From contig NZ_JAVSMM010000015.1 of the NCBI RefSeq assembly GCF_032027225.1, positions 20,093-84,092 on the forward strand: 64,000 nt of DNA. Reading direction: 5' to 3'. Origin of the DNA: Aromatoleum sp. (GTDB lineage Bacteria > Pseudomonadota > Gammaproteobacteria > Burkholderiales > Rhodocyclaceae). The position numbers and the translations under genes were made by a program. Each line of letters opens with the position of its first letter. Within the stretch, counting starts at the first letter, position 1. The notes under the pieces were generated by a model. It was not told the DNA's origin, searched no databases, and saw only the letters and a program-made list of their open reading frames with translations. Shown one piece after another: positions 1,811 through 64,000 of this stretch.

Positions 1811-3402
<1,592 letters not shown>

Positions 3403-3439
3403 CCGTCATCGCCCCTTAAAATCAATCAAAGGAATATCA

Positions 3440-4624
3440 ATGTCCGAGCAGGTTCAGGTAATTGGGGTGGGCATGGTCAAGTTCGTCAAGCCCGGCACCC
3501 AGGAGCCCTACGAAATCATGGCGTCGAAAGCCATTCGCGCCGCCCTCGCCGATGCCGACGTGCCCTACGACAAGATCCAGCAGGCCTACGCGAGCTACGT
3601 ATTCGGCGACAGCGCCTGCGGCCAGGCCGCCCTGTACCGGGTCGGCATGACCGGCATCCCGCTGTTCAACGTCAACAACAACTGCTCGTCGGGCTCGTCC
3701 GCTTTGTTCCTCGCCCGTCAGGCCGTGCTCTCCGGCAGCGTCGACTGTGCTTTGGCGTTCGGTTTCGAGGAAATGCGCCCCGGCGCGCTGGGCGCAGTCT
3801 GGAACGACCGCACTTCGCCGCTGCTCGAGATGGAAGATCAGCTCGAAAAGATCGTGCCGGGCGTCCCGCCGGCATCCAACGCCCATCGCCTGTTCGGCTC
3901 CGCCGCGCTGGCCTACATCGAAAAGACCGGCGCCAACCCCGACATCTTTGCAAAAGTGGCGGTGAAGACCCGCAAGCACGCGATGAACAACCCCCTGGCG
4001 ATGTTCAACCAGCCCCTCACCGTCGACGAGGTCATGCAGTCGCCGGTGATTTTCGCCCCTTACCTGACCCGTCTCGAAGCCTGCCCGCCTTCCTGCGGCG
4101 CGGCCGCGGCCGTGGTGTGCAGCGAGGCGTTCGCGCGTCGACACGGCCTCACCCGCGGCATCCCGATCCTCGCCCAGGCGATGACGACCGACCGTCCGGC
4201 CCGCAACGACAATTCGATCGATCTCGCCGGCGCCGACATGACCCGCAACGCCGCCGCGCAGGTGTACGCGCAGGCGGGGATCGGCCCGCAGGACGTCGAC
4301 GTCGTCGAGCTGCATGACTGCTTCACCTCGAACGAGGTCATCACTTACGAAGGGCTGGGACTCTGCGGCGAGGGCGAGGCCGAAGGCTTCATCGCGCGCG
4401 GCGACAACACATACGGCGGCAAATACGTCATCAATCCGTCCGGCGGGCTGATGTCCAAAGGGCATCCGCTGGGTGCGACCGGCCTCGCTCAATGTACGGA
4501 ACTGGTGTCGCAATTGCGCGGGGAAGCCGGCGCGCGGCAGGTGGATCGCGCGCGCCTTGCGCTTCAGCATAATCTGGGGCTGGGCGGCGCCTGTGTCGTG
4601 ACCCTGTACGGGAAAAACGCCTGA
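3440..4624 (+). CDS. thiolase-like protein, SCP-x / nonspecific lipid-transfer-protein type
   Basis: 394 aa. VIGVGMVKF...NVNNNCSSGSSALFLARQAV (active-site Cys region) and a C-terminal GGLMSKGHPLGATGLAQ ... HNLGLGGA thiolase signature. Confidence 0.75.
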   Translation: MSEQVQVIGVGMVKFVKPGTQEPYEIMASKAIRAALADADVPYDKIQQAYASYVFGDSACGQAALYRVGMTGIPLFNVNNNCSSGSSALFLARQAVLSGSVDCALAFGFEEMRPGALGAVWNDRTSPLLEMEDQLEKIVPGVPPASNAHRLFGSAALAYIEKTGANPDIFAKVAVKTRKHAMNNPLAMFNQPLTVDEVMQSPVIFAPYLTRLEACPPSCGAAAAVVCSEAFARRHGLTRGIPILAQAMTTDRPARNDNSIDLAGADMTRNAAAQVYAQAGIGPQDVDVVELHDCFTSNEVITYEGLGLCGEGEAEGFIARGDNTYGGKYVINPSGGLMSKGHPLGATGLAQCTELVSQLRGEAGARQVDRARLALQHNLGLGGACVVTLYGKNA

Positions 4625-4663
4625 TCGGGGTCGCATTCACTTTATTCGAGCGAGGGTGGGATC

Positions 4664-4981
4664 GTGATCACGACAATTGTCGAATACAAACTTCCTTCCG
4701 CCCTGGGCAGGGAAAGAATCCTTGAAAAATTCCAAGCTGCCCGGGAAAAATTCATCAACACCGAAGGCTTGGTGAAAAAATATTTCTGCTACGACTCGTC
4801 CGACGGCACGGGGACGAGCGTTTACATCTGGAAAAACTTGTCGTGCGCGGAAGCTTTCTTCACGCCAGAAATGCTTCATGCGTTCGAAAAGACTTTTGGA
4901 TGCCGCCCCACGCTCAGGCATGTCGATACGCTCATGACCCTCGACAACATGACCGGCGAAGTCGCTGTTTTCAGCAGCTGA
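4664..4981 (+). CDS. small YdhR/ABM-like putative monooxygenase-fold protein (hypothetical)
   Basis: 105-aa ORF with a GTG start. It fills the gap between the thiolase-like and MDR genes. Lower GC than its neighbours but a consistent frame. The family call is by weak resemblance only. Confidence 0.4.
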   Translation: MITTIVEYKLPSALGRERILEKFQAAREKFINTEGLVKKYFCYDSSDGTGTSVYIWKNLSCAEAFFTPEMLHAFEKTFGCRPTLRHVDTLMTLDNMTGEVAVFSS

Positions 4982-5025
4982 GCGGGCAGCAAATACCGCA
5001 GCGCTTTTCACAAAAGGTAAATTGC

Positions 5026-6033
5026 ATGAGAGCGATCAGATTACGTAACCCCGCGGGCCTCGACCGCCTTGAGCTGGTCGAGCTTCCCGATCCTGGCCAG
5101 CCCGGACCGGGCGAGATCAGAGTGAGGATTCACGCCAGTTCCCTCAATTTCCACGACCTTGGGGTCGTCATCGGCGCCATGCCCGCGGCCGACGGGCGCA
5201 TCCCGATGTCCGATGGCGCCGGAGTGGTCGAGGCAATCGGTGAAGGAGTCGATGAATTCGCCGTGGGCGATGCCGTGGTCTCGACTTTCTTTCCGCAGTG
5301 GCTGGAGGGCGAGCCCCGCATCGCTGACTTCTCGACCACTCCTGGCGACGGCGCCGATGGCTATGCATGCGAGTTCGCCGTTCGGCCAGCGACTGCCTTC
5401 ACGCGCGCACCGCGTCACTACAGCCACGCGCAAGCCGCCACGCTGACCACGGCCGGACTCACCGCATGGCGTGCGCTGATCTGCAACGGCGGCCTGAAAG
5501 CCGGCGACAGCGTACTCGTGCTGGGTACGGGCGGCGTTTCGATCTTTGCGCTCCAGTTCGCCAAGGCGATGGGCGCGACCGTGATCGCGACCTCTTCCTC
5601 GGACGAAAAACTCGAGCGTGTCAAAGCTCTCGGCGCCAACCACGTCATCAATTACCGCCGTGAAACGGATTGGGCTTCGCGCGTGCTCGATTTCACCGGC
5701 GGCCGCGGCGTCGATCACATTGTCGAAGTCGGAGGACCCGGCACCTTGGCTCAATCGATCCAGGCCTGCCGGATAGGGGGTCACATCGCATTGATCGGCG
5801 TGCTCACAGGGGGAGCAGGGCCCGTGCCTACGGCGGCGCTGATGAAGCGCCAGCAGCGCCTGCAAGGGCTGATTGTCGGCAATCGGCAACATCAGAACGA
5901 ACTGGTCCGTGCCATCGAAGCGACTGGGATTACACCAGTCATCGACCGCTCATTCGCGCTCAAAAACATCGCCGATGCGTTCCGTCTGCAACAGGCGGGA
6001 GGGCACTTCGGGAAAATATGCCTGGAATTTTGA
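5026..6033 (+). CDS. MDR-family NAD(P)H quinone oxidoreductase / zinc-type alcohol dehydrogenase-like protein
   Basis: MRAIRLRNPAGLDRLELVELPDPGQPGPGEIRVRIHASSLNFHD and a Rossmann VLVLGTGGVSIFALQFAK. The ORF track starts at 4843, but that N-terminus overlaps the previous gene. ATG 5026 is the family-typical start. Confidence 0.8.
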   Translation: MRAIRLRNPAGLDRLELVELPDPGQPGPGEIRVRIHASSLNFHDLGVVIGAMPAADGRIPMSDGAGVVEAIGEGVDEFAVGDAVVSTFFPQWLEGEPRIADFSTTPGDGADGYACEFAVRPATAFTRAPRHYSHAQAATLTTAGLTAWRALICNGGLKAGDSVLVLGTGGVSIFALQFAKAMGATVIATSSSDEKLERVKALGANHVINYRRETDWASRVLDFTGGRGVDHIVEVGGPGTLAQSIQACRIGGHIALIGVLTGGAGPVPTAALMKRQQRLQGLIVGNRQHQNELVRAIEATGITPVIDRSFALKNIADAFRLQQAGGHFGKICLEF

Positions 6034-55248: not shown

Positions 55249-56229
55249 ATGAGCATCAAGGTCATGTCGCTCGTATGGGAAGGATTTCCTGCGTCCGGAA
55301 GCGAGATGCTGGCAATGCTCGCTCTCGCGGACTGGTGCAACGACGAGGGCGGAAGTCTCCACCCGTCGATGAAGGCTGTTGCGGAAAAGATCCGCGTTTC
55401 GGAAAAGCAGGCTCGTCGGATCATCCACGCCTTTGAAGAAACCGGATACCTCAAGGTAGTCGGGAATGCCAATGGTGGCGCGCCCGGCACCACAAAGCAG
55501 TACCAGCTCAACGTCGTGAAACTTAAGACGCTTGCGGACGAAGCCGCAGCCCGAAAGACGGCTCCCGTCGATGTCACCCCTCCCACCGACGTCACCCCTC
55601 CCGTCGATGTCACCCCTCCCACCGACGTCACCCCTCCCGCCGATGTCACCCCTCCCACCCATGGGAGGGTACGGCTCCCACCCATGGGAGGAGAGGGCTC
55701 CCATGGGTGTCCCGAGACGCCTCCCACCGGTGGGAGCCAAACCACCAGTGAACCACCAGTGAACCACCAGTTAACCGTCAGGGGGACGGCGGCGCCTGCA
55801 GAGCCGGAACTCCCCCTTGCTGTCGCCAAGGCGCCAGCCCCCCACCAGGCCCAGGCCCCTCCCGGCGAGACGGCGCTGCAGGCCGCCTGCCGGGCGACCT
55901 GGGCAGCCTACCGCCAAGCCTATGCAAACCGTTACGGTGCCGCCCCGGTGCGTAACCAGAAAGTCAGCTCGCAGGTGAAGCAGTTCGTGCAGCGCATCGG
56001 CTACGAGGAATCGCCCCTGGTTGCCGCGTGGTTCGTGCAGCACCCCGGGAGCTACTACGTCGGGCGCATGCACGACTTGGGCTGCCTGCTGAGCGACGCC
56101 GAGAAGCTGCACACCGAGTGGGTGACGGGAAGGGTCATGACCGCCGGCAAGGCCCGCCAGTCCGACAGAACCGGCACTACCATGGCCGCACTCGCCGAGG
56201 TGCTGGCCGAGAGAGGAGAGTCGCTGTGA
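55249..56229 (+). CDS. helix-turn-helix protein, phage/plasmid replication-initiator-like, with a highly repetitive central linker
   Basis: The N-terminus MSLVWEGFPASGSEMLAMLALADWCNDEGGSLHPSMKAVAEKIRVSEKQARRIIHAFEETGYLKVV is a wHTH of the DnaD/Rep-like type. The central linker contains (V/T/A)DVTPP x5. Confidence 0.6.
   Translation: MSIKVMSLVWEGFPASGSEMLAMLALADWCNDEGGSLHPSMKAVAEKIRVSEKQARRIIHAFEETGYLKVVGNANGGAPGTTKQYQLNVVKLKTLADEAAARKTAPVDVTPPTDVTPPVDVTPPTDVTPPADVTPPTHGRVRLPPMGGEGSHGCPETPPTGGSQTTSEPPVNHQLTVRGTAAPAEPELPLAVAKAPAPHQAQAPPGETALQAACRATWAAYRQAYANRYGAAPVRNQKVSSQVKQFVQRIGYEESPLVAAWFVQHPGSYYVGRMHDLGCLLSDAEKLHTEWVTGRVMTAGKARQSDRTGTTMAALAEVLAERGESL
55567..55656 (+). repeat. tandem 18-bp repeat x5 inside the HTH gene
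   Basis: GTCGATGTCACCCCTCCC / ACCGACGTCACCCCTCCC alternating. Units at 55567, 55585, 55603, 55621, 55639. Confidence 0.9.
55740..55772 (+). repeat. tandem 11-bp repeat x3 inside the HTH gene
   Basis: AACCACCAGTG, AACCACCAGTG, AACCACCAGTT. Confidence 0.85.
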
Positions 56230-58825: not shown

Positions 58826-59016
58826 ATGGACATGTCGACCGACAAGCTGGCGCTGCGCGCCGTCATTCCCACGCGGCCTCGCAATGCCGGAGGAGATGAC
58901 ATGCGCGGTCATCGACGCAGCCATCTGCTCCAAGTCGGTCTCGAACTAGCCGGGCATGCCCTTTGGTCGCTATACAATGCGATCGACTGCCAATAAACGG
59001 AAATCAGCCGACAAGC

Positions 59017-59460
59017 ATGACCGACCTCTCCGTCTACACCCTCCCCCAGCTCAAACAACTCACCGCCCTGATCGAGAAGGAGATCGCCAAGCGCGAGTCC
59101 GTGACCAAATCCGATCTTCTGAAAAAGCTGACGAAGCTCGCGAAGGAAAGCGGCCTGTCCCTTGACGACGTGCTCGGAAACGCCACTCCGGCTCCGGCGA
59201 AAGCTCGGAAGGTTTCCCCCAAGGGGACAGTTACGCGCAAAGAGCCTTTGCCAATCAAATATCAGCACCCAAGCAACCGCGATCTCGCTTGGTCCGGACG
59301 CGGACGCCGGCCGCAGTGGGTCGAAGCTTGGTTGGCGCAGGGGGGTGCATTGAGCGCGCTGGAGATCGCAGCGCAAAAGATGGCAAAGCGGAGCATGAAG
59401 AAGGCGACGGAAGCGCAGCCGGTAGTGCAGGAACCGGCGGCAGAGGTAGCGGCTAGCTGA
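59017..59460 (+). CDS. H-NS family nucleoid-associated protein (xenogeneic-silencer type)
   Basis: N-terminal coiled coil (LSVYTLPQLKQLTALIEKEIAKRE) and a C-terminal DNA-binding motif KYQHPSNRDLAWSGRGRRPQWV. Confidence 0.8.
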   Translation: MTDLSVYTLPQLKQLTALIEKEIAKRESVTKSDLLKKLTKLAKESGLSLDDVLGNATPAPAKARKVSPKGTVTRKEPLPIKYQHPSNRDLAWSGRGRRPQWVEAWLAQGGALSALEIAAQKMAKRSMKKATEAQPVVQEPAAEVAAS

Positions 59461-59879: not shown

Positions 59880-61040
59880 CTAAGCTCCGACAGGAGTACT
59901 GTCTTGCGCCTCCTCCCGCTCAGAAATCGCCAAGTTGAGTTTCTGCTCGATTAGCGACCGAAGAGCATGCTGAACCTCGGAAGAGACAATTTTCTTTGCG
60001 TCGGCATTTGGAGAGCTCTTGTGCACCCATCGCATAACCTCAAATACTAACTCTGAACTAGGACTAACCGACCTCGATCCACTAAACGAGAAGGAAACTC
60101 GGCATTCGCCTTCGTTCGGTCCGACTACGAATGGAAACGTCACATCCATTCGGAGAATATAGTAATGCTTATAGTATTTCTCGTCGTTGATTAGAAAGAT
60201 GTCATTCAGCCTATCGCCATCCACATTAAATCGCCGGACAGTTTGTTTCATCCAAGCGATTTGAGGGTCATCGGGCAAGGCGGGGCCGTTGGTGTCCAGG
60301 CAAATGTCTATATCATTTACACTGCCGGCCTGTACGCAAGCCCCATACCCTGCAGTCAGTCGCTTGAAGTACCTAATACGCTCTTCATTGTTCAAGAATC
60401 CAAAGGTCACCGAAATCGGTTCATCACCCTTGACGAGATTCTCACCGTAAAGCACCTTTGCAATACGCGATGTGATCTTTTTATTGACAACTTCAGTTTC
60501 CTTCGATGAATGAGTTGAAGTAAACTCAAGCTTCAACTCACCCCCTTGACGCTCAATCGTCACTTGCGCATCGAAGCTAAGTTCTCGCTGAATCCAGTCC
60601 TTGCTGAAATCTTGGCGTTGAATCTGATATGGAATTGTGACTTTATCTGCATCGACAACAACCAGGGTTGGGCTTGTAACGAAATCCACACCCGAAGCCT
60701 CGCCTAGCATATCAAATGGTTCAGCAAAGAGACTCTTCTTCAGCGGAGTAATCCAATCCACCCCTTTTGCCACCAAATCCAAGCCAGCTACCTTAATCTT
60801 TGGCTGCGATTCGCGACTGACACTGCTTTCAATCAACCTTGTAAAATTATCTGGAGTTAAAAGCGTTGCAGAAAGAAGTGGAACAGTTATTGCCTTATCG
60901 GAGTTTCCAACAAATACCCCCTTTTCTTTGAGTGCCCCATATATTTCTCCGTAGCTAAGGTGATCGCTTCCCAAGAGAATTCGGAGGTCTGAGCCCGACA
61001 CAATGCTGGACTTGAGATCAATGGCGTGAGCTTTAGTCAT
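59880..61040 (-). CDS. unknown 386-aa protein, third gene of the AT-rich operon
   Basis: Long ORF in a region of about 45% GC, where random ORFs are short. The start ATG 61040 lies 2 nt after the upstream stop. No motif recognised and no Walker A. Confidence 0.75.
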   Translation of the reverse strand: MTKAHAIDLKSSIVSGSDLRILLGSDHLSYGEIYGALKEKGVFVGNSDKAITVPLLSATLLTPDNFTRLIESSVSRESQPKIKVAGLDLVAKGVDWITPLKKSLFAEPFDMLGEASGVDFVTSPTLVVVDADKVTIPYQIQRQDFSKDWIQRELSFDAQVTIERQGGELKLEFTSTHSSKETEVVNKKITSRIAKVLYGENLVKGDEPISVTFGFLNNEERIRYFKRLTAGYGACVQAGSVNDIDICLDTNGPALPDDPQIAWMKQTVRRFNVDGDRLNDIFLINDEKYYKHYYILRMDVTFPFVVGPNEGECRVSFSFSGSRSVSPSSELVFEVMRWVHKSSPNADAKKIVSSEVQHALRSLIEQKLNLAISEREEAQDSTPVGA

Positions 61041-61042
61041 GA

Positions 61043-61978
61043 CTAAGCCTCATTCAGAAGGGCCAAGATAGAGCGATTGAAAGAGAAAGGCTCAATCGTT
61101 TCATTACGGTCTGAAAAGGCCAATCTCGCCAGATCTGCAGCCGCCTTATCGGTCGCGGGATTATAATCCGGCATACCGATTCTTATGGTTGCAACCAGAC
61201 CTGTACAAAATCTCAGTCCATAGGCTATCAATTTTGTGTACGCATCCGTACTGAATGCCTGATTTGCATAAATGATCATTTCGGTCTTCTCGCCCTCGTA
61301 CATAACAATGGGCAGAACGTCCGAAGCAATTATCTCAAGAGGCAGAAATGCGCCAGTTCTTGCCTCGTCCACAGTAGTGACCGTGCCAATGACTGGGAAG
61401 AAGAACGCCCAATCTTTCTGGCGGCGCTCGATGTCGTCCATGACCTTCATGACGAAGCCCGCACGCCCGCTGTCGATCAAATAAACGGGGACGTCCGATT
61501 CTTGTTCCAAACGGATTTTCGACAAGATCGGCTTAATGTCTCGCTCGATATCTTCTGCATCGTTGTGCACCCAAATCAGGAGCCCGGAGTGAGAGACCTT
61601 TTTGCGCGCCTTGAACGACTTGGTCGCTTGAGAAACTTCTTCGCTATAACGGGCACACTCGATCACCTCGTGAAGCTCGGCTAGATGCTCTTTGAATTCC
61701 CGCTTTAATGCAGACTCAGATGCAGGATAGGAGCCAATCTTGTTCTTGACCGAGACATGTACCACATCCGTTCTTACGTCATGAAAGGGATTGTTGTACA
61801 GAAATATCTGATCCTCGCCGTGACTAGTCCTTTGATTTCCCTTTTCATTCCTATGAGTCGGTGTGTTGCATTTTATGGGAACGTTCTTTAAGCTTTTTTT
61901 CCACCCGATTCGATCCAAAAGCCCTGCAGCGATACTCTCTCCGATTTCACCGGAGCTTTTTGATTTCTCCCCTGCCAT
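61043..61978 (-). CDS. 311-aa protein with a putative PD-(D/E)xK (Mrr-cat/DUF4365-like) N-terminal nuclease core, second gene of the AT-rich operon
   Basis: GEIGESIAAGLLDRIGW ... SHGEDQIFLY ... TDVVHVSVKNK resembles the helix / D / (E,Q,S)xK layout of restriction-endonuclease-fold proteins. The C-terminal 200 aa are unknown. ATG 61978 lies 2 nt after the upstream stop. Confidence 0.7.
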   Translation of the reverse strand: MAGEKSKSSGEIGESIAAGLLDRIGWKKSLKNVPIKCNTPTHRNEKGNQRTSHGEDQIFLYNNPFHDVRTDVVHVSVKNKIGSYPASESALKREFKEHLAELHEVIECARYSEEVSQATKSFKARKKVSHSGLLIWVHNDAEDIERDIKPILSKIRLEQESDVPVYLIDSGRAGFVMKVMDDIERRQKDWAFFFPVIGTVTTVDEARTGAFLPLEIIASDVLPIVMYEGEKTEMIIYANQAFSTDAYTKLIAYGLRFCTGLVATIRIGMPDYNPATDKAAADLARLAFSDRNETIEPFSFNRSILALLNEA

Positions 61979-61980
61979 TC

Positions 61981-62988
61981 CTATTCTCCAAGCTCGATAT
62001 CAATAATGGCCCGATATCCATTCTTCGTCTTACTTATTGAGCAGTTTTCCAAGCGAGCCTTGGGATTGGCGACAGTTAAGCCAATTCCATCGCCTAGGGG
62101 GTATTGGCGGAGCACGTTTCTGGTTCGACGAGTGAGAAGCGCTGAATCGAGTGTGCTTCCTGATAATGCCGAAAAGCCCGAATGATCCTCAAGTTGCTGC
62201 GTCAATCTACTCACTTCATCGCGATCTAGATATCGCTCAGAAACCTCTTCCACATCTCGATAATTGACCGTTGTACTGGCGGAAAAAATGTCAACTAAAT
62301 CTCGACGCAAGGACATTCCGGCCTCTACATCAATCCTTGAACAGACTTGCTTAACAAATTCTGCGGCCAATTTGGAAGTTGATTTTCTGGTTTGTCTTGG
62401 CCTCGCTTTCAGAAAAAGCTCTGCCCAGTACTTTGTTTGCTGACTGCCTGATTCTTTGACGAAGACGCCAACGTCGTCTCCGACAATCAGAGCACCTTTT
62501 TGAATACTGGTCACTGGAATTCCATTGAGTTCTATGAGATTTATCGAATCGTCTGATTTTTCTATATCAAAGAATTTCTCACGTTGCTCAATCTTATAGA
62601 GCCCCAGTGCCGCATGTGGTATGCCGTCAATTCGCACATCCTGAAAGAGAATTACGATGAACTCACCCTCCGCAATGCTGGGATGCATCGAAGCCGAGTA
62701 AAGGTGTTTCGCAATATTCTGGCTGACGTTCACAAAATTTTCTTCGTTAGCCAGTATTCGCGCGGAGAAATGCTTTGCGGCATTCAGGCTGATATCAGAC
62801 TCGTGATAGAACTCAAAGTCTTCGCCTGATTTTGCAAGTGGTGTGAGATAGTGTCGAAGAAGCGTGCCGCGCAATTCCGCAGTCCCGCGCACTTCCTGCT
62901 GTGAGAATTCACACCCTTCTTCCCGCAGACGATTTCCTACTCGATGGACCACGCAGTGCGTGACCTTTGCTGAACTGACATCTAGCAT
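61981..62988 (-). CDS. NdpA/YejK (NA37)-like nucleoid-associated DNA-binding protein, first gene of the AT-rich operon
   Basis: 335 aa from ATG 62988 (GGGGGA RBS), the same length as E. coli YejK. Colinear resemblance: [11 protein letters not shown] vs [24 protein letters not shown] vs [38 protein letters not shown] vs [34 protein letters not shown] vs GGLTINFDAML. Confidence 0.7.
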   Translation of the reverse strand: [335 protein letters not shown]

Positions 62989-63529
62989 TGATTCCCCCTG
63001 GGCAGACTTGTGGTAGCCACCTAATGCTGTGGTCCTAAATGTAACATCATGTTCAGCCAACTTCACTGTGAAAAGCCTGCACGGGAGTCCCGTTGTGCGC
63101 ATTCACTGTGTGCCATGCAAGTCAGTGCCGGACTGACCGCTGCCGTTGAACGGCCGTTGAGCAATCCGTTGCCGCCTGACTGTCGACAGCAAGCCAACGA
63201 CGGCAATGGCCGAGCTGCCGAACTAGGTCATCCGGCAGGTATGAGCGCCGAACGGCTCTTTCGCTGTTCGTCCTGAAGAGGGGGAGTCCCCTTGTCGCCG
63301 AGAGCATCCCTCTTGTGCCGCGCCGCAATACGGTCGCTCGACGGCTTTCGAACCGAGCAGGAGCGCCATGAGCCGCGCCACCGCGTAAGACGCCCCCATC
63401 TACCACGTCTAAAGGCCCGGTCTGGCGAGCATCTCCGCCCAACGCCGGCAGAGCAGTTCGCACCGGGCGCAAAATGCACCTGCCATTCCATATAGACTGC
63501 CATCTTCAAGACAACGTCGGGAACGCAAC

Positions 63530-64000
63530 GTGGCACAGTACGACGAGAGAGTGATCCAATCCTATGCGGATGCGTTATACGATCGGGCCGCCGTGATCGT
63601 GTTCCAGTACACGGCCGGAGCGGGCGTACTCGGAGCCTTGGGAGCGCATTTCAGCGTCGGCGACCAAACTGCGATCACGGCGAGTTTTGGCATCGGCGCT
63701 CTGATCGGATTCGTACTCGGACGAGGCAAATCATTTCGACTGCGTCTTGAGGCACAGACGGCCCTCTGTCAGATGCAGATCGAGCGCAATACACGGCCCT
63801 CGTCGCGCGCGCCATCATTGGTCTTGGACGAGCCCGCGACGCAGTGCATAGCCGAGGGCAAGGCCACCCCTGCGCCGAGCGAGCAGTCCGAGGCCATGGC
63901 TCGTGCGATCTTCTCGAACAACGGCGAAGCGGTGAGCCGACTCATTGCTGGCGGAGCTGACGTCAATTTGCCGAACGAGAATGGCGTCACACCGCTGCAG
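63530..64000 (+). CDS. partial CDS: membrane protein with a C-terminal ankyrin repeat, running off the window
   Basis: Frame open from 63413 to the window end. Contains a TM-like VIVFQYTAGAGVLGALGAHF...ASFGIGALIGFVLG and the ankyrin signature LIAGGADVNLPNENGVTPLQ. The only plausible start is GTG 63530 (weak RBS). Confidence 0.4.
   Translation, partial: MAQYDERVIQSYADALYDRAAVIVFQYTAGAGVLGALGAHFSVGDQTAITASFGIGALIGFVLGRGKSFRLRLEAQTALCQMQIERNTRPSSRAPSLVLDEPATQCIAEGKATPAPSEQSEAMARAIFSNNGEAVSRLIAGGADVNLPNENGVTPLQ

Follow-up and report, generated by a model that had tools for sequence, protein, structure and literature searches.

A YejK-like nucleoid-associated protein gene in operon with the GAPS4 nuclease pair in the ICE cargo of an Aromatoleum genome

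Do three AT-rich genes in the cargo of an ICE make up a defense system of a new kind, and what is a nucleoid-associated protein (NAP) doing among them? The genes lie towards one end of a stretch of 64,000 nucleotides from Aromatoleum sp. (contig NZ_JAVSMM010000015.1, positions 20,093 to 84,092 of the forward strand), referred to here as the window. No new category of system is present, as each part and the general logic have already been published. The physical combination of GAPS4 with a YejK-like NAP in a widespread three-gene operon is unreported in the literature searched.

The operon and its setting

The ORF list of the window holds three consecutive ORFs on the minus strand (Table 1). 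Direct reading gives the gene 1/gene 2 junction as GGAGAA-TAG-GA-ATG and the gene 2/gene 3 junction as GAGGCT-TAG-TC-ATG, each with a 2-nt gap, and at both a purine-rich ribosome-binding site lies inside the preceding gene. Gene 1 is probably co-transcribed with the nuclease pair and translationally coupled to it. In the mechanical ORF list, gene 1 runs to 63102 (373 aa). The start at 62988 (335 aa) is better supported, because GGGGGA is found 4 nt upstream of it and the lengths and starts of homologs agree. Nearly all of 74 homologs are approximately 335-337 aa long, and those aligned (alignment A2) begin M-[LI]-D-[VI]-S-S. Across the leader the GC content climbs from about 0.5 to above 0.6. 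The operon promoter was not located, as a sigma-70 consensus scan of the leader returned no convincing match.

Table 1. Coordinates of the operon genes and of features within them, in positions of the window.
Feature	Coordinates	Strand	Basis
Gene 1, YejK/NA37-fold NAP, 335 aa, first gene	61981..62988	-	Pfam NA37 and Foldseek
NAP basic patch K194-R196-R198-R201-K202-K206, candidate DNA-contact surface	62371..62409	-	Conservation in NAP alignment
5′ leader and presumed promoter region	62989..63100	-	Sequence read; ribosome-binding site GGGGGA at 62993-62998
Gene 2, GAPS4a, 311 aa, predicted PD-(D/E)xK-type DNase subunit	61043..61978	-	NCBIfam NF047933 (antiphage_GapS4a)
H53-G54-E55-D56 codons, HGxD half of the GAPS4a active-site motif	61811..61822	-	Conservation
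S76-V77-K78 codons, SxK half of the GAPS4a active-site motif	61745..61753	-	Conservation
Gene 3, GAPS4b, 386 aa, predicted non-catalytic ring-forming partner in A2B2	59880..61040	-	NCBIfam NF047934 (antiphage_GapS4b)

The GC content of the operon is 0.473, compared with a mean of 0.647 for 568 other 3.1-kb windows (sd 0.025, minimum 0.583), which places it about 7 sd low. It is the sole stretch of the window below 0.55, with a value of 0.65 outside it. In contigs that are 99.9-100% identical to the end of the window, the flanking genes on either side have a GC content of 0.60-0.665; the low-GC block therefore consists of exactly the three genes. The surrounding genes encode a TraD/TraG coupling protein, TraC, TraG_N, DsbC, SLT, RadC, EAL and H-NS proteins. 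In the same near-identical contigs, McrB/McrC and type I restriction-modification (R-M) genes are found 1-6 kb upstream of gene 1, so the operon sits in a defense island. A sequence-only reading had described the stop-2nt-start packing, an AT-rich cassette acquired separately and a location in ICE cargo, and all three descriptions hold. The operon is thus real, and it came into the defense-gene cargo of the ICE by horizontal transfer as a single cassette.

Families of the three proteins

Gene 2 scores 303.5 bits against the NCBIfam GapS4a model (cut-off 270) and gene 3 scores 342.2 bits against the GapS4b model (cut-off 300). A protein 100% identical to the gene 2 product (P0075) is named “GapS4a family protein” and carries Pfam PF26115 (PDDEXK_GAPS4), and orthologs of gene 3 carry PF26110 (GAPS4b_N). 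Identity to the tested E. coli proteins is 25% for GAPS4a (WP_028132563.1, E 2e-31) and 23% for GAPS4b (WP_028132564.1, E 3e-20), the lengths being 311/386 aa here and 308/385 aa in E. coli. The gene arrangement is likewise that of GAPS4, with a before b on the same strand and adjacent to it (TAG-TC-ATG). Elsewhere in the family there are fused GAPS4a-b forms of about 700 aa.

GAPS4 is a GMT-island anti-phage system of Vibrio parahaemolyticus MAVP-R, with a homolog in E. coli RiKo 2299/09, and has been experimentally validated as a two-gene system (Mahata et al., bioRxiv 10.1101/2023.03.28.534373; 10.1101/2025.09.07.674715). It forms an A2B2 DNase with an HGxD-SxK site that is triggered by DNA breaks (bioRxiv 10.1101/2025.09.07.674715). 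Once breaks appear, the published systems degrade phage and host DNA non-selectively, which constitutes abortive infection. The homologous Asp is needed for defense in both the Vibrio and the E. coli system (10.1101/2025.09.07.674715).

The same non-canonical PD-(D/E)xK motif, HGxD-SxK, is present near the N-terminus of gene 2. Among 111 family members D56 and K78 are invariant, and H53, G54 and S76 are at least 90% conserved. The AF2 model (pLDDT 85.9) has an N-terminal alpha-beta-beta-beta-alpha core, in which D56 falls in predicted strand beta2 (residues 52-62) and S76-V77-K78 in predicted strand beta3 (residues 69-80). A whole-chain Foldseek search with this model gave no match below E 1e-3, and the weak local structure matches were confined to RPB5 N-domains, a phage restriction endonuclease and SPARDA.

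Gene 1 matches Pfam NA37 with 50.4 bits (E 2.8e-13, cut-off 24.6). The sole significant PDB fold match of its AF2 model (pLDDT 87.7, pTM 0.80) in Foldseek is 9be2, the YejK protein of E. coli (E 2.9e-8, probability 1.0, 325 aligned columns, TM 0.46). YejK, also known as NdpA, is a housekeeping NAP that has its full-length fold, Pfam family and size in common with gene 1, but the identity is only 11%. A sequence profile of the gene 1 clade did not retrieve YejK when run against the PDB. Unlike YejK, gene 1 resides in a mobile, AT-rich cassette, and its linkage to GAPS4 is constant. Its product is a putative DNA-bound sensor or regulator.

The family membership of all three proteins and the conservation of the catalytic motif are thus established at the level of sequence. 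The earlier reading was right to place gene 1 with NdpA/YejK and to propose a PD-(D/E)xK-type nuclease for gene 2, with the D of HGED and the K of SVK as predicted catalytic residues. The likeness of gene 2 to Mrr-cat or DUF4365 that it suggested found no support, as Pfam gave nothing. Nor is the system undescribed, as both downstream genes exceed the curated GapS4a/GapS4b cut-offs; gene 3, for which no family had been recognized, is GAPS4b, the presumed ring-forming partner of the nuclease. The profile search that had been proposed as a check for an already named system identifies genes 2 and 3 as GAPS4 and leaves gene 1 outside it.

Conservation of the trio and the possible role of the NAP

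A GAPS4a profile was used to draw 23 loci from contigs of one genome per species. In every one of them (23/23) a NAP ORF of the gene 1 type lies directly upstream of GAPS4a, and GAPS4b is present wherever the contig reaches past GAPS4a. At the NAP/GAPS4a junctions the two genes either overlap slightly, by a few to about 50 nt according to automatic start calls, or are separated by up to 5 nt. The loci span Beta-, Gamma- and Alphaproteobacteria together with Bilophila, with GAPS4a 38-80% identical to gene 2, and look-ups seeded with the NAP return the same arrangement. The NAP also precedes GAPS4a/b, among unrelated flanks, in five of six more distant lineages, namely Acinetobacter, Bacillus cereus, another Bacillus and two metagenome lineages; GAPS4a identity is 24-31% here and the NAPs match the gene 1 clade HMM at E 1e-54 to 1e-100. 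A NAP gene is missing from the E. coli RiKo locus, which lies in a P2-like prophage, at a defense hotspot between tail genes.

Pairwise identities of the NAP correlate with those of GAPS4a (r = 0.87) and of GAPS4b (r = 0.89), and none of 2000 Mantel permutations reached the correlation observed. By these sequence comparisons the trio is conserved across phyla and its three proteins co-diverge, which bears out the proposal that they act as one functional unit. The deepest split in the GAPS4a+b tree has the three-gene form on either side, with examples from Pseudomonadota as well as Bacillota. The Klebsiella trio occupies an integrase island at the tmRNA site with MobA/TraD, that of B. pseudomallei an integrase island adjoining a T6SS cluster, and that of locus L050 lies next to IS21-like genes. 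At locus L039, a related NAP stands beside different neighbors.

A role for the NAP is suggested by PANGU, in which YejK-like NAPs respond to phage-induced breakdown of the genome by switching on their partner effectors (Li et al., April 2026 preprint, bioRxiv 10.64898/2026.04.06.716658). The PANGU NAP is released when the genome is degraded and then activates the effector; defense by types I and II depends on the NAP, and neither gene is toxic by itself. The DNA-contact residues of PANGU Pag1A are K200/R203/K204 (same preprint). The basic patch of gene 1 may correspond to them, since residues 194-206 lie at about the same ordinal position, a correspondence by position and not by alignment. 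In an alignment of 38 NAPs, four residues of this stretch (K194, P197, T200 and K206) reach a conservation of 90% or more.

The anti-phage module in ICE cargo that had been predicted from the letters fits the GapS4a/GapS4b membership and the defense neighbors. The account considered probable, if with some reserve, is that of a three-gene anti-phage operon, NAP plus GAPS4a/b, in which the NAP acts as a PANGU-like trigger of the DNase. By analogy with PANGU, the NAP would be held on long intact chromosomal DNA in the uninfected cell. Fragmentation of the nucleoid by phage nucleases would free it, and the freed NAP would engage GAPS4a/b and license or boost the DNase. Nuclease firing would then be coupled to the loss of nucleoid integrity and not to sporadic breaks. 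Two-gene GAPS4 systems, among them that of E. coli RiKo, defend without an operon-encoded NAP; therefore the nuclease pair can sense breaks by itself and the NAP is not universally required.

A bolder form of the trigger account is held only tentatively. Here the YejK-like NAP would be an integral third subunit that gates GAPS4 by nucleoid integrity, the three-gene form would be ancestral and the commonest, and two-gene systems would have arisen by loss of the NAP. YejK is abundant in E. coli. As both studied two-gene GAPS4 systems were assayed in that species (GAPS4 papers), they may borrow the host YejK in trans.

It is also conceivable, although rather unlikely, that the identity of the operon is the same and the NAP serves as a brake. 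It would coat DNA or mask ends, or sequester GAPS4 on the nucleoid, and so raise the firing threshold, limiting the autoimmunity and DNA-damage hypersensitivity of GAPS4 as an antitoxin-like safety subunit. Several observations reported in the GAPS4 preprint speak for a brake: an autoimmunity trade-off that depends on expression, sensitization to nalidixic acid and a T6SS DNase, and attenuation by catalytically dead DNA-binding homing endonucleases. The attenuation by DNA-binding proteins fits a partner that coats DNA and brakes GAPS4 no less well than one that activates it. Sensing does not need the NAP, given that the E. coli pair works without it, and a first, translationally coupled gene is common for protective partners. 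However, PANGU types I and II, with their required and activating NAP and their harmless single genes, are the only NAP-effector systems to have been studied. Easy loss or variation would also be expected of a brake, yet here the NAP persists in all loci, over a sequence divergence of about 75%.

That the trio is not primarily anti-phage, and instead serves its carrier element as an addiction, stabilization or anti-plasmid module killing cells with broken or lost DNA, is improbable. The trio is always found on mobile or island DNA (the ICE here, the Klebsiella and B. pseudomallei islands, the IS21-like genes at L050), and GAPS4 responds to any source of DNA breaks and not to phage alone. Against this, with two GAPS4 homologs many phages plate 2-6 orders of magnitude less efficiently (GAPS4 papers), the neighbors here are classical restriction systems, and the E. 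coli two-gene form occupies a P2 prophage defense hotspot. Least credible, and strongly disfavored, is a gene 1 that serves the ICE or host as a nucleoid protein and lies upstream by chance: H-NS in the same cargo region and the related NAP with other neighbors at L039 would suit it, but the 2-nt junction, the adjacency in 23/23 GAPS4a-seeded loci and 5/6 distant lineages with unrelated flanks, the co-divergence (r = 0.87-0.89) and a compositional boundary enclosing exactly three genes all contradict it.

Significance and comparison with known systems

The operon fuses two recent discoveries, GAPS4 as a DNase firing on DNA breaks and PANGU; the PANGU paper does not mention GAPS4, nor the GAPS4 paper PANGU. 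Should the NAP gate the nuclease, the autoimmunity trade-off of GAPS4 and its attenuation by DNA-binding proteins would need reinterpretation, and work on GAPS4 would have left out a core component of most natural loci. If, in addition, the three-gene form is ancestral, GAPS4 and PANGU would represent a single principle of sensing seen from two sides. For annotation, an NA37 gene of this type directly upstream of gapS4a/gapS4b is to be treated as part of a defense system and not as a housekeeping nucleoid protein.

Compared with GAPS4, the gene order, adjacency, lengths and HGxD-SxK motif are alike. GAPS4 as published has two genes, and neither GAPS4 paper mentions a nucleoid protein, whereas here a third gene lies upstream; in most sampled lineages the pair follows a YejK-like NAP gene that co-evolves with it. 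The locus is a variant of GAPS4, because this conserved, co-evolving NAP gene belongs to the operon.

The resemblance to PANGU lies in a YejK-like NAP whose gene is closely packed in one operon with that of a toxic effector, near known defense genes. A PANGU locus encodes a YejK-like NAP (here by Pfam NA37 and Foldseek 9be2) in operon with a non-NAP partner at gaps below 40 bp, within 10 kb of known defense genes; the gaps here are 2 nt, and McrB/McrC and the type I R-M genes lie within that distance. PANGU is strictly bicistronic, so that three genes fit only the wider “PANGU-like” description of its “Cluster3”, a NAP with two downstream conserved hypothetical proteins found across phyla and untested in that study (bioRxiv 10.64898/2026.04.06.716658). 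Cluster3 is probably the NAP-GAPS4 trio, as matched by published description and not by accessions; its gene arrangement fits, and so does its occurrence in Pseudomonadota and Bacillota. The text of the PANGU paper does not contain the word GAPS4 and does not recognize Cluster3 as such. If the two are the same, the effector of Cluster3 would be a nuclease, one whose catalytic motif is known and for which assays already exist. Of the validated PANGU systems, type I uses a GRel alarmone synthetase as its effector and type II a membrane protein, with no nuclease among them. The effector of the trio is itself a DNA-damage sensor, so that DNA integrity would be read twice, by the sensor and by the effector. 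The logic of a DNA-binding sensor plus an effector, which the earlier reading had proposed, is already in print for YejK-like proteins as PANGU.

DS-1, from DefensePredictor (Science 2026, PMC13092281), is another validated defense operon with an NA37/YejK domain, consisting in E. coli of a YejK-domain protein and a 404-aa partner. DS-1 differs in having only two genes, in its partner protein and in the N-terminal zinc ribbon of DS-1A. BLAST detected no similarity between gene 1 and DS-1A, the sole validated defense NAP compared by sequence. Hachiman (HamAB) and Shedu, a comparison drawn in both source papers, likewise rely on a non-selective PD-(D/E)xK nuclease that fires when DNA integrity is lost, being activated by DNA damage or DNA ends. 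The trio differs in having no helicase partner and no homology to them, and its sensing would use the GAPS4b ring and/or the NAP.

Family assignment of the three genes

Genes 2 and 3 of the minus-strand operon are, by their sequences, the two genes of GAPS4, a published anti-phage nuclease. The sequence-only reading had put the operon forward as an undescribed system. This does not hold, as the two proteins exceed the NCBIfam cut-offs for GapS4a and GapS4b (see table) and the idea of a nucleoid-associated protein (NAP) as sensor is that of the published PANGU defence. Public databases list a protein with 100% identity to gene 2 under the name "GapS4a family protein", with Pfam PF26115 (PDDEXK_GAPS4). 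PF26115 and PF26110 are newer Pfam models, present in precomputed annotations only, and no model in the Pfam copy searched matches gene 2 or gene 3. None of the PADLOC-DB 2023 models matches any of the three proteins; the sole line, a Type I specificity subunit on gene 1 (E 0.003, 14.5 bits), is noise. Matches in PHROGs are limited to families of unknown function.

The active-site motif of gene 2 consists of H53-G54-E55-D56 and S76-V77-K78. D56 and K78 do not vary among 111 family members, and H53, G54 and S76 are conserved in at least 90%. The AF2 model (pLDDT 85.9) has an N-terminal alpha-beta-beta-beta-alpha core, with the motif on strands beta2 and beta3. GAPS4a has been reported to use a non-canonical HGxD-SxK PD-(D/E)xK site in which the Asp is essential (10.1101/2025.09.07.674715). 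Identity to the tested E. coli pair, GAPS4-RiKo, is 25% for gene 2 (E 2e-31) and 23% for gene 3 (E 3e-20). The best whole-chain Foldseek matches of the gene 2 model (PDB, BFVD) are too weak to interpret, being eukaryotic Argonautes and bacterial SPARDA (DREN-APAZ) at E ~1e-3 to 1e-2 and TM ~0.2. A C-terminal part of ~200 aa is without an assigned fold.

Gene 1 matches Pfam NA37 (E 2.8e-13). The single significant PDB fold match of its AF2 model (pLDDT 87.7, pTM 0.80) is E. coli YejK (9be2), at E 2.9e-8 over 325 aligned columns in Foldseek. YejK was missed by PDB sequence searches, both with gene 1 alone and with a 38-sequence profile, and was found only by fold comparison. The roles first guessed for genes 1 and 2, a NA37/YejK protein and a PD-(D/E)xK-type nuclease, were correct. 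A catalytic site in the NAP itself, formed by the invariant-looking H15, H62-E63-S64-D65 and H102, is rejected because HESD is not conserved in Bacillus orthologues and a NAP unlinked to GAPS4 shares the remaining motifs. This unlinked NAP, from locus L039, is 27% identical to gene 1 and has nearly all motifs common to the GAPS4-linked NAPs. Upstream of it are a DUF6731-like 315-aa ORF and a 165-aa ORF overlapping the NAP start, and downstream is a DUF6088-like ORF. This locus may represent another NAP-operon type, since "Cluster4", an operon group in the PANGU paper, places two genes ahead of the NAP.

Features of the window and of the comparison loci with their coordinates
Feature	Sequence	Position (strand)	Details
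Gene 1 (NAP)	window	61981-62988 (-)	335 aa
Gene 2 (GAPS4a)	window	61043-61978 (-)	NF047933 antiphage_GapS4a (NCBIfam June 2026), 303.5 bits, cut-off 270
Gene 3 (GAPS4b)	window	59880-61040 (-)	NF047934 antiphage_GapS4b (NCBIfam June 2026), 342.2 bits, cut-off 300
H-NS-family gene	window	58963-59460 (+)	Histone_HNS C-terminal domain
ORF with weak HTH_36 match	window	55249-56229 (+)	
Proline-rich tandem repeat in this ORF	window	55562-55663	PVDVTPPTDVTPP...
Ankyrin-like ORF, divergent	window	~63530-64000 (3' part)	178 aa
Defence island beyond the right end of the window	L051	1-6449	L051 5979 = window 64000; GC 0.60-0.665 throughout, unlike the trio
Type I R-M	L051		hsdM, DUF1016/YhcG PD-(D/E)xK protein, hsdS
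NAP locus without GAPS4 genes	L039 (IMG/VR UViG_3300008514_000107)	2567-5819	
310-aa ORF beside GAPS4a/b	L048 (metagenome scaffold)	80-1012	

Operon layout and genomic setting

ORF calling places the three genes on the minus strand, and the stop-2nt-start arrangement first noticed in the sequence is real, both junctions having been read directly. The junction of genes 1 and 2 is GGAGAA-TAG-GA-ATG and that of genes 2 and 3 is GAGGCT-TAG-TC-ATG, each with a 2-nt gap and a purine-rich ribosome-binding site within the preceding gene. This pattern is typical of translational coupling. The start of gene 1 is most likely at 62988 rather than at the earliest possible start, 63102, because GGGGGA lies 4 nt upstream and because of the lengths and N-termini of its homologues: nearly all of the 74 have ~335-337 residues, and the aligned ones open with M-[LI]-D-[VI]-S-S.

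The description of the operon as an AT-rich cassette is borne out by a GC content of 0.473, against a mean of 0.647 (sd 0.025, minimum 0.583) in 568 other 3.1-kb windows. The trio is the sole part of the window with GC below 0.55. In contigs that match the window end at 99.9-100% identity, the 0.47-0.48 stretch coincides exactly with the three genes, with 0.60-0.665 on both sides. Consensus scans for promoters and terminators gave fewer sites than shuffled controls did, and none of the sites lies at the operon ends.

The trio is surrounded by genes of an integrative and conjugative element (ICE), namely a TraD/TraG-type coupling protein, TraC, TraG_N, DsbC, SLT, RadC, EAL and H-NS, in agreement with the cargo location first proposed. 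The near-identical contigs run 6 kb beyond position 64000. Beyond gene 1, the ankyrin-like ORF is followed first by McrB-McrC and next by type I R-M genes, which include a DUF1016/YhcG nuclease. With McrBC and type I R-M beside it, the trio is therefore part of a defence island, itself a section of the ICE cargo.

The H-NS-family gene lies ~400 bp downstream of the trio and is convergent with it. As a candidate role, this ICE-borne H-NS could act as a xenogeneic silencer that keeps the AT-rich nuclease operon repressed. Further away, BLAST against two of the near-identical contigs (L051/L052) breaks up at the proline-rich repeat, giving two segments that overlap. This suggests a difference in repeat copy number between elements otherwise 99.9% identical.

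Conservation of the trio and the two-gene form

The trio is, across the homologous loci compared, a conserved and co-diverging unit, as had been supposed from its layout. Look-ups seeded with the NAP return homologues 66% (B. pseudomallei), 41% (Methylobacter) and 35% (Klebsiella) identical to gene 1. Each has GAPS4a directly next, followed by GAPS4b where the contig is long enough, and the flanks are unrelated. A scan seeded with GAPS4a, taking one genome per species, gives 23 loci (38-80% identical to gene 2) in Beta-, Gamma- and Alphaproteobacteria, Bilophila and Cardiobacterium. A NAP ORF of the gene 1 type is immediately upstream of GAPS4a in 23/23. The two ORFs are at most 5 nt apart or overlap slightly, by a few to ~50 nt according to automatic start calls. 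GAPS4b is present wherever the contig runs past GAPS4a. Across 27 trios, pairwise identities correlate at r = 0.87 for NAP and GAPS4a, 0.89 for NAP and GAPS4b and 0.97 for GAPS4a and GAPS4b; in a Mantel test of NAP against GAPS4a, 0/2000 permutations reach the observed value.

The adjacency extends to most of the more distant lineages. A protein search with a profile built from intermediate GAPS4a sequences gave only 10 proteins. The trio layout recurs around GAPS4a relatives of 24-31% identity in Acinetobacter, Bacillus cereus, another Bacillus and two metagenome lineages, and their NAPs match the HMM of the gene 1 clade at E 1e-54 to 1e-100. In the exception, L048, a divergent GAPS4a/b pair is preceded, 80 nt upstream, by a 310-aa ORF that is not a NAP. 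This ORF has no match to the gene 1-clade HMM at E up to 10 and none in Pfam, and could encode an alternative third partner or have no connection with the pair.

Carriers of the trio and of GAPS4 vary by host. The B. pseudomallei trio has an integrase/HTH island on one side and a T6SS VgrG-PAAR-TsiV cluster on the other, and that of Klebsiella belongs to an integrase island at the tmRNA/smpB site, together with ParA, TraD and MobA. The E. coli two-gene form occupies the P2 prophage hotspot: the GAPS4-RiKo proteins (WP_028132563.1/WP_028132564.1) are encoded in a P2-like prophage between tail-fibre assembly and tail-sheath genes, with no NAP. Plasmids of Ewingella and Pantoea, a further E. coli strain and IMG/VR prophages carry two-gene relatives as well. 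A blastn search of complete E. coli genomes with an Enterobacter trio gave no match. A search of the supplements of the GMT-island paper for a NAP gene beside the Vibrio prototype (WP_055466293.1, V. parahaemolyticus MAVP-R) found a housekeeping yejK at an insertion site and nothing else. Fused forms of ~700 aa occur among the 465 family representatives (50% identity, E up to 1e-3). In a rough neighbour-joining tree of GAPS4a and GAPS4b, which is not a robust phylogeny, the three-gene form occurs on either side of the deepest split and the RiKo-like two-gene clade is one branch; this hints that the two-gene form arose by loss of the NAP.

Proposed mechanism and relation to published systems

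GAPS4 was discovered in Vibrio GMT islands and protects E. coli from phages (10.1101/2023.03.28.534373). It needs both genes, the proteins of which form an A2B2 heterotetramer that degrades host and phage DNA upon DNA breaks caused by phage, nalidixic acid or a T6SS DNase (10.1101/2025.09.07.674715). PANGU, described in an April 2026 preprint, combines a YejK-like NAP with an effector (10.64898/2026.04.06.716658). The NAP clamps long dsDNA, is freed when phage nucleases degrade the chromosome, and then binds and activates the effector; mutations in DNA binding render the system toxic (10.64898/2026.04.06.716658).

The three family identities, the catalytic motif, operon coupling, the conservation and co-divergence of the trio and its defence-island setting are established; the mechanism is proposed. 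The NAP would be held on intact nucleoid DNA and freed by phage-induced fragmentation. Freed NAP would then license the GAPS4a2b2 DNase, leading to abortive infection. This trigger model, the identity of the trio included, is regarded as fairly probable. In the main rival model the NAP would act as a brake, by masking DNA or by sequestering the nuclease, which would fit the reported autoimmunity cost of GAPS4 and its reported attenuation by DNA-binding proteins, such as nuclease-dead homing endonucleases (10.1101/2025.09.07.674715); this role is considered unlikely. Trigger and brake make opposite predictions for a deletion of gene 1 and for a DNA-binding mutant.

The GAPS4 pair and, through PANGU, the NAP-sensor idea are already known. 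Neither GAPS4 paper mentions a nucleoid protein (10.1101/2023.03.28.534373, 10.1101/2025.09.07.674715), and GAPS4 is never mentioned in the PANGU text (10.64898/2026.04.06.716658). The "Cluster3" operons of that preprint, untested there, comprise a NAP with two conserved hypothetical proteins encoded downstream of it and occur across phyla (10.64898/2026.04.06.716658); going by this description, they are probably the NAP-GAPS4 trio. DefensePredictor validated DS-1 (PMC13092281), another YejK-domain operon, which is unrelated in sequence to the trio. The trio has two genes in common with published GAPS4 and differs from it in the upstream NAP gene. The novelty lies in the three-gene combination, documented here as widespread and co-evolving, through which GAPS4 and PANGU are linked.
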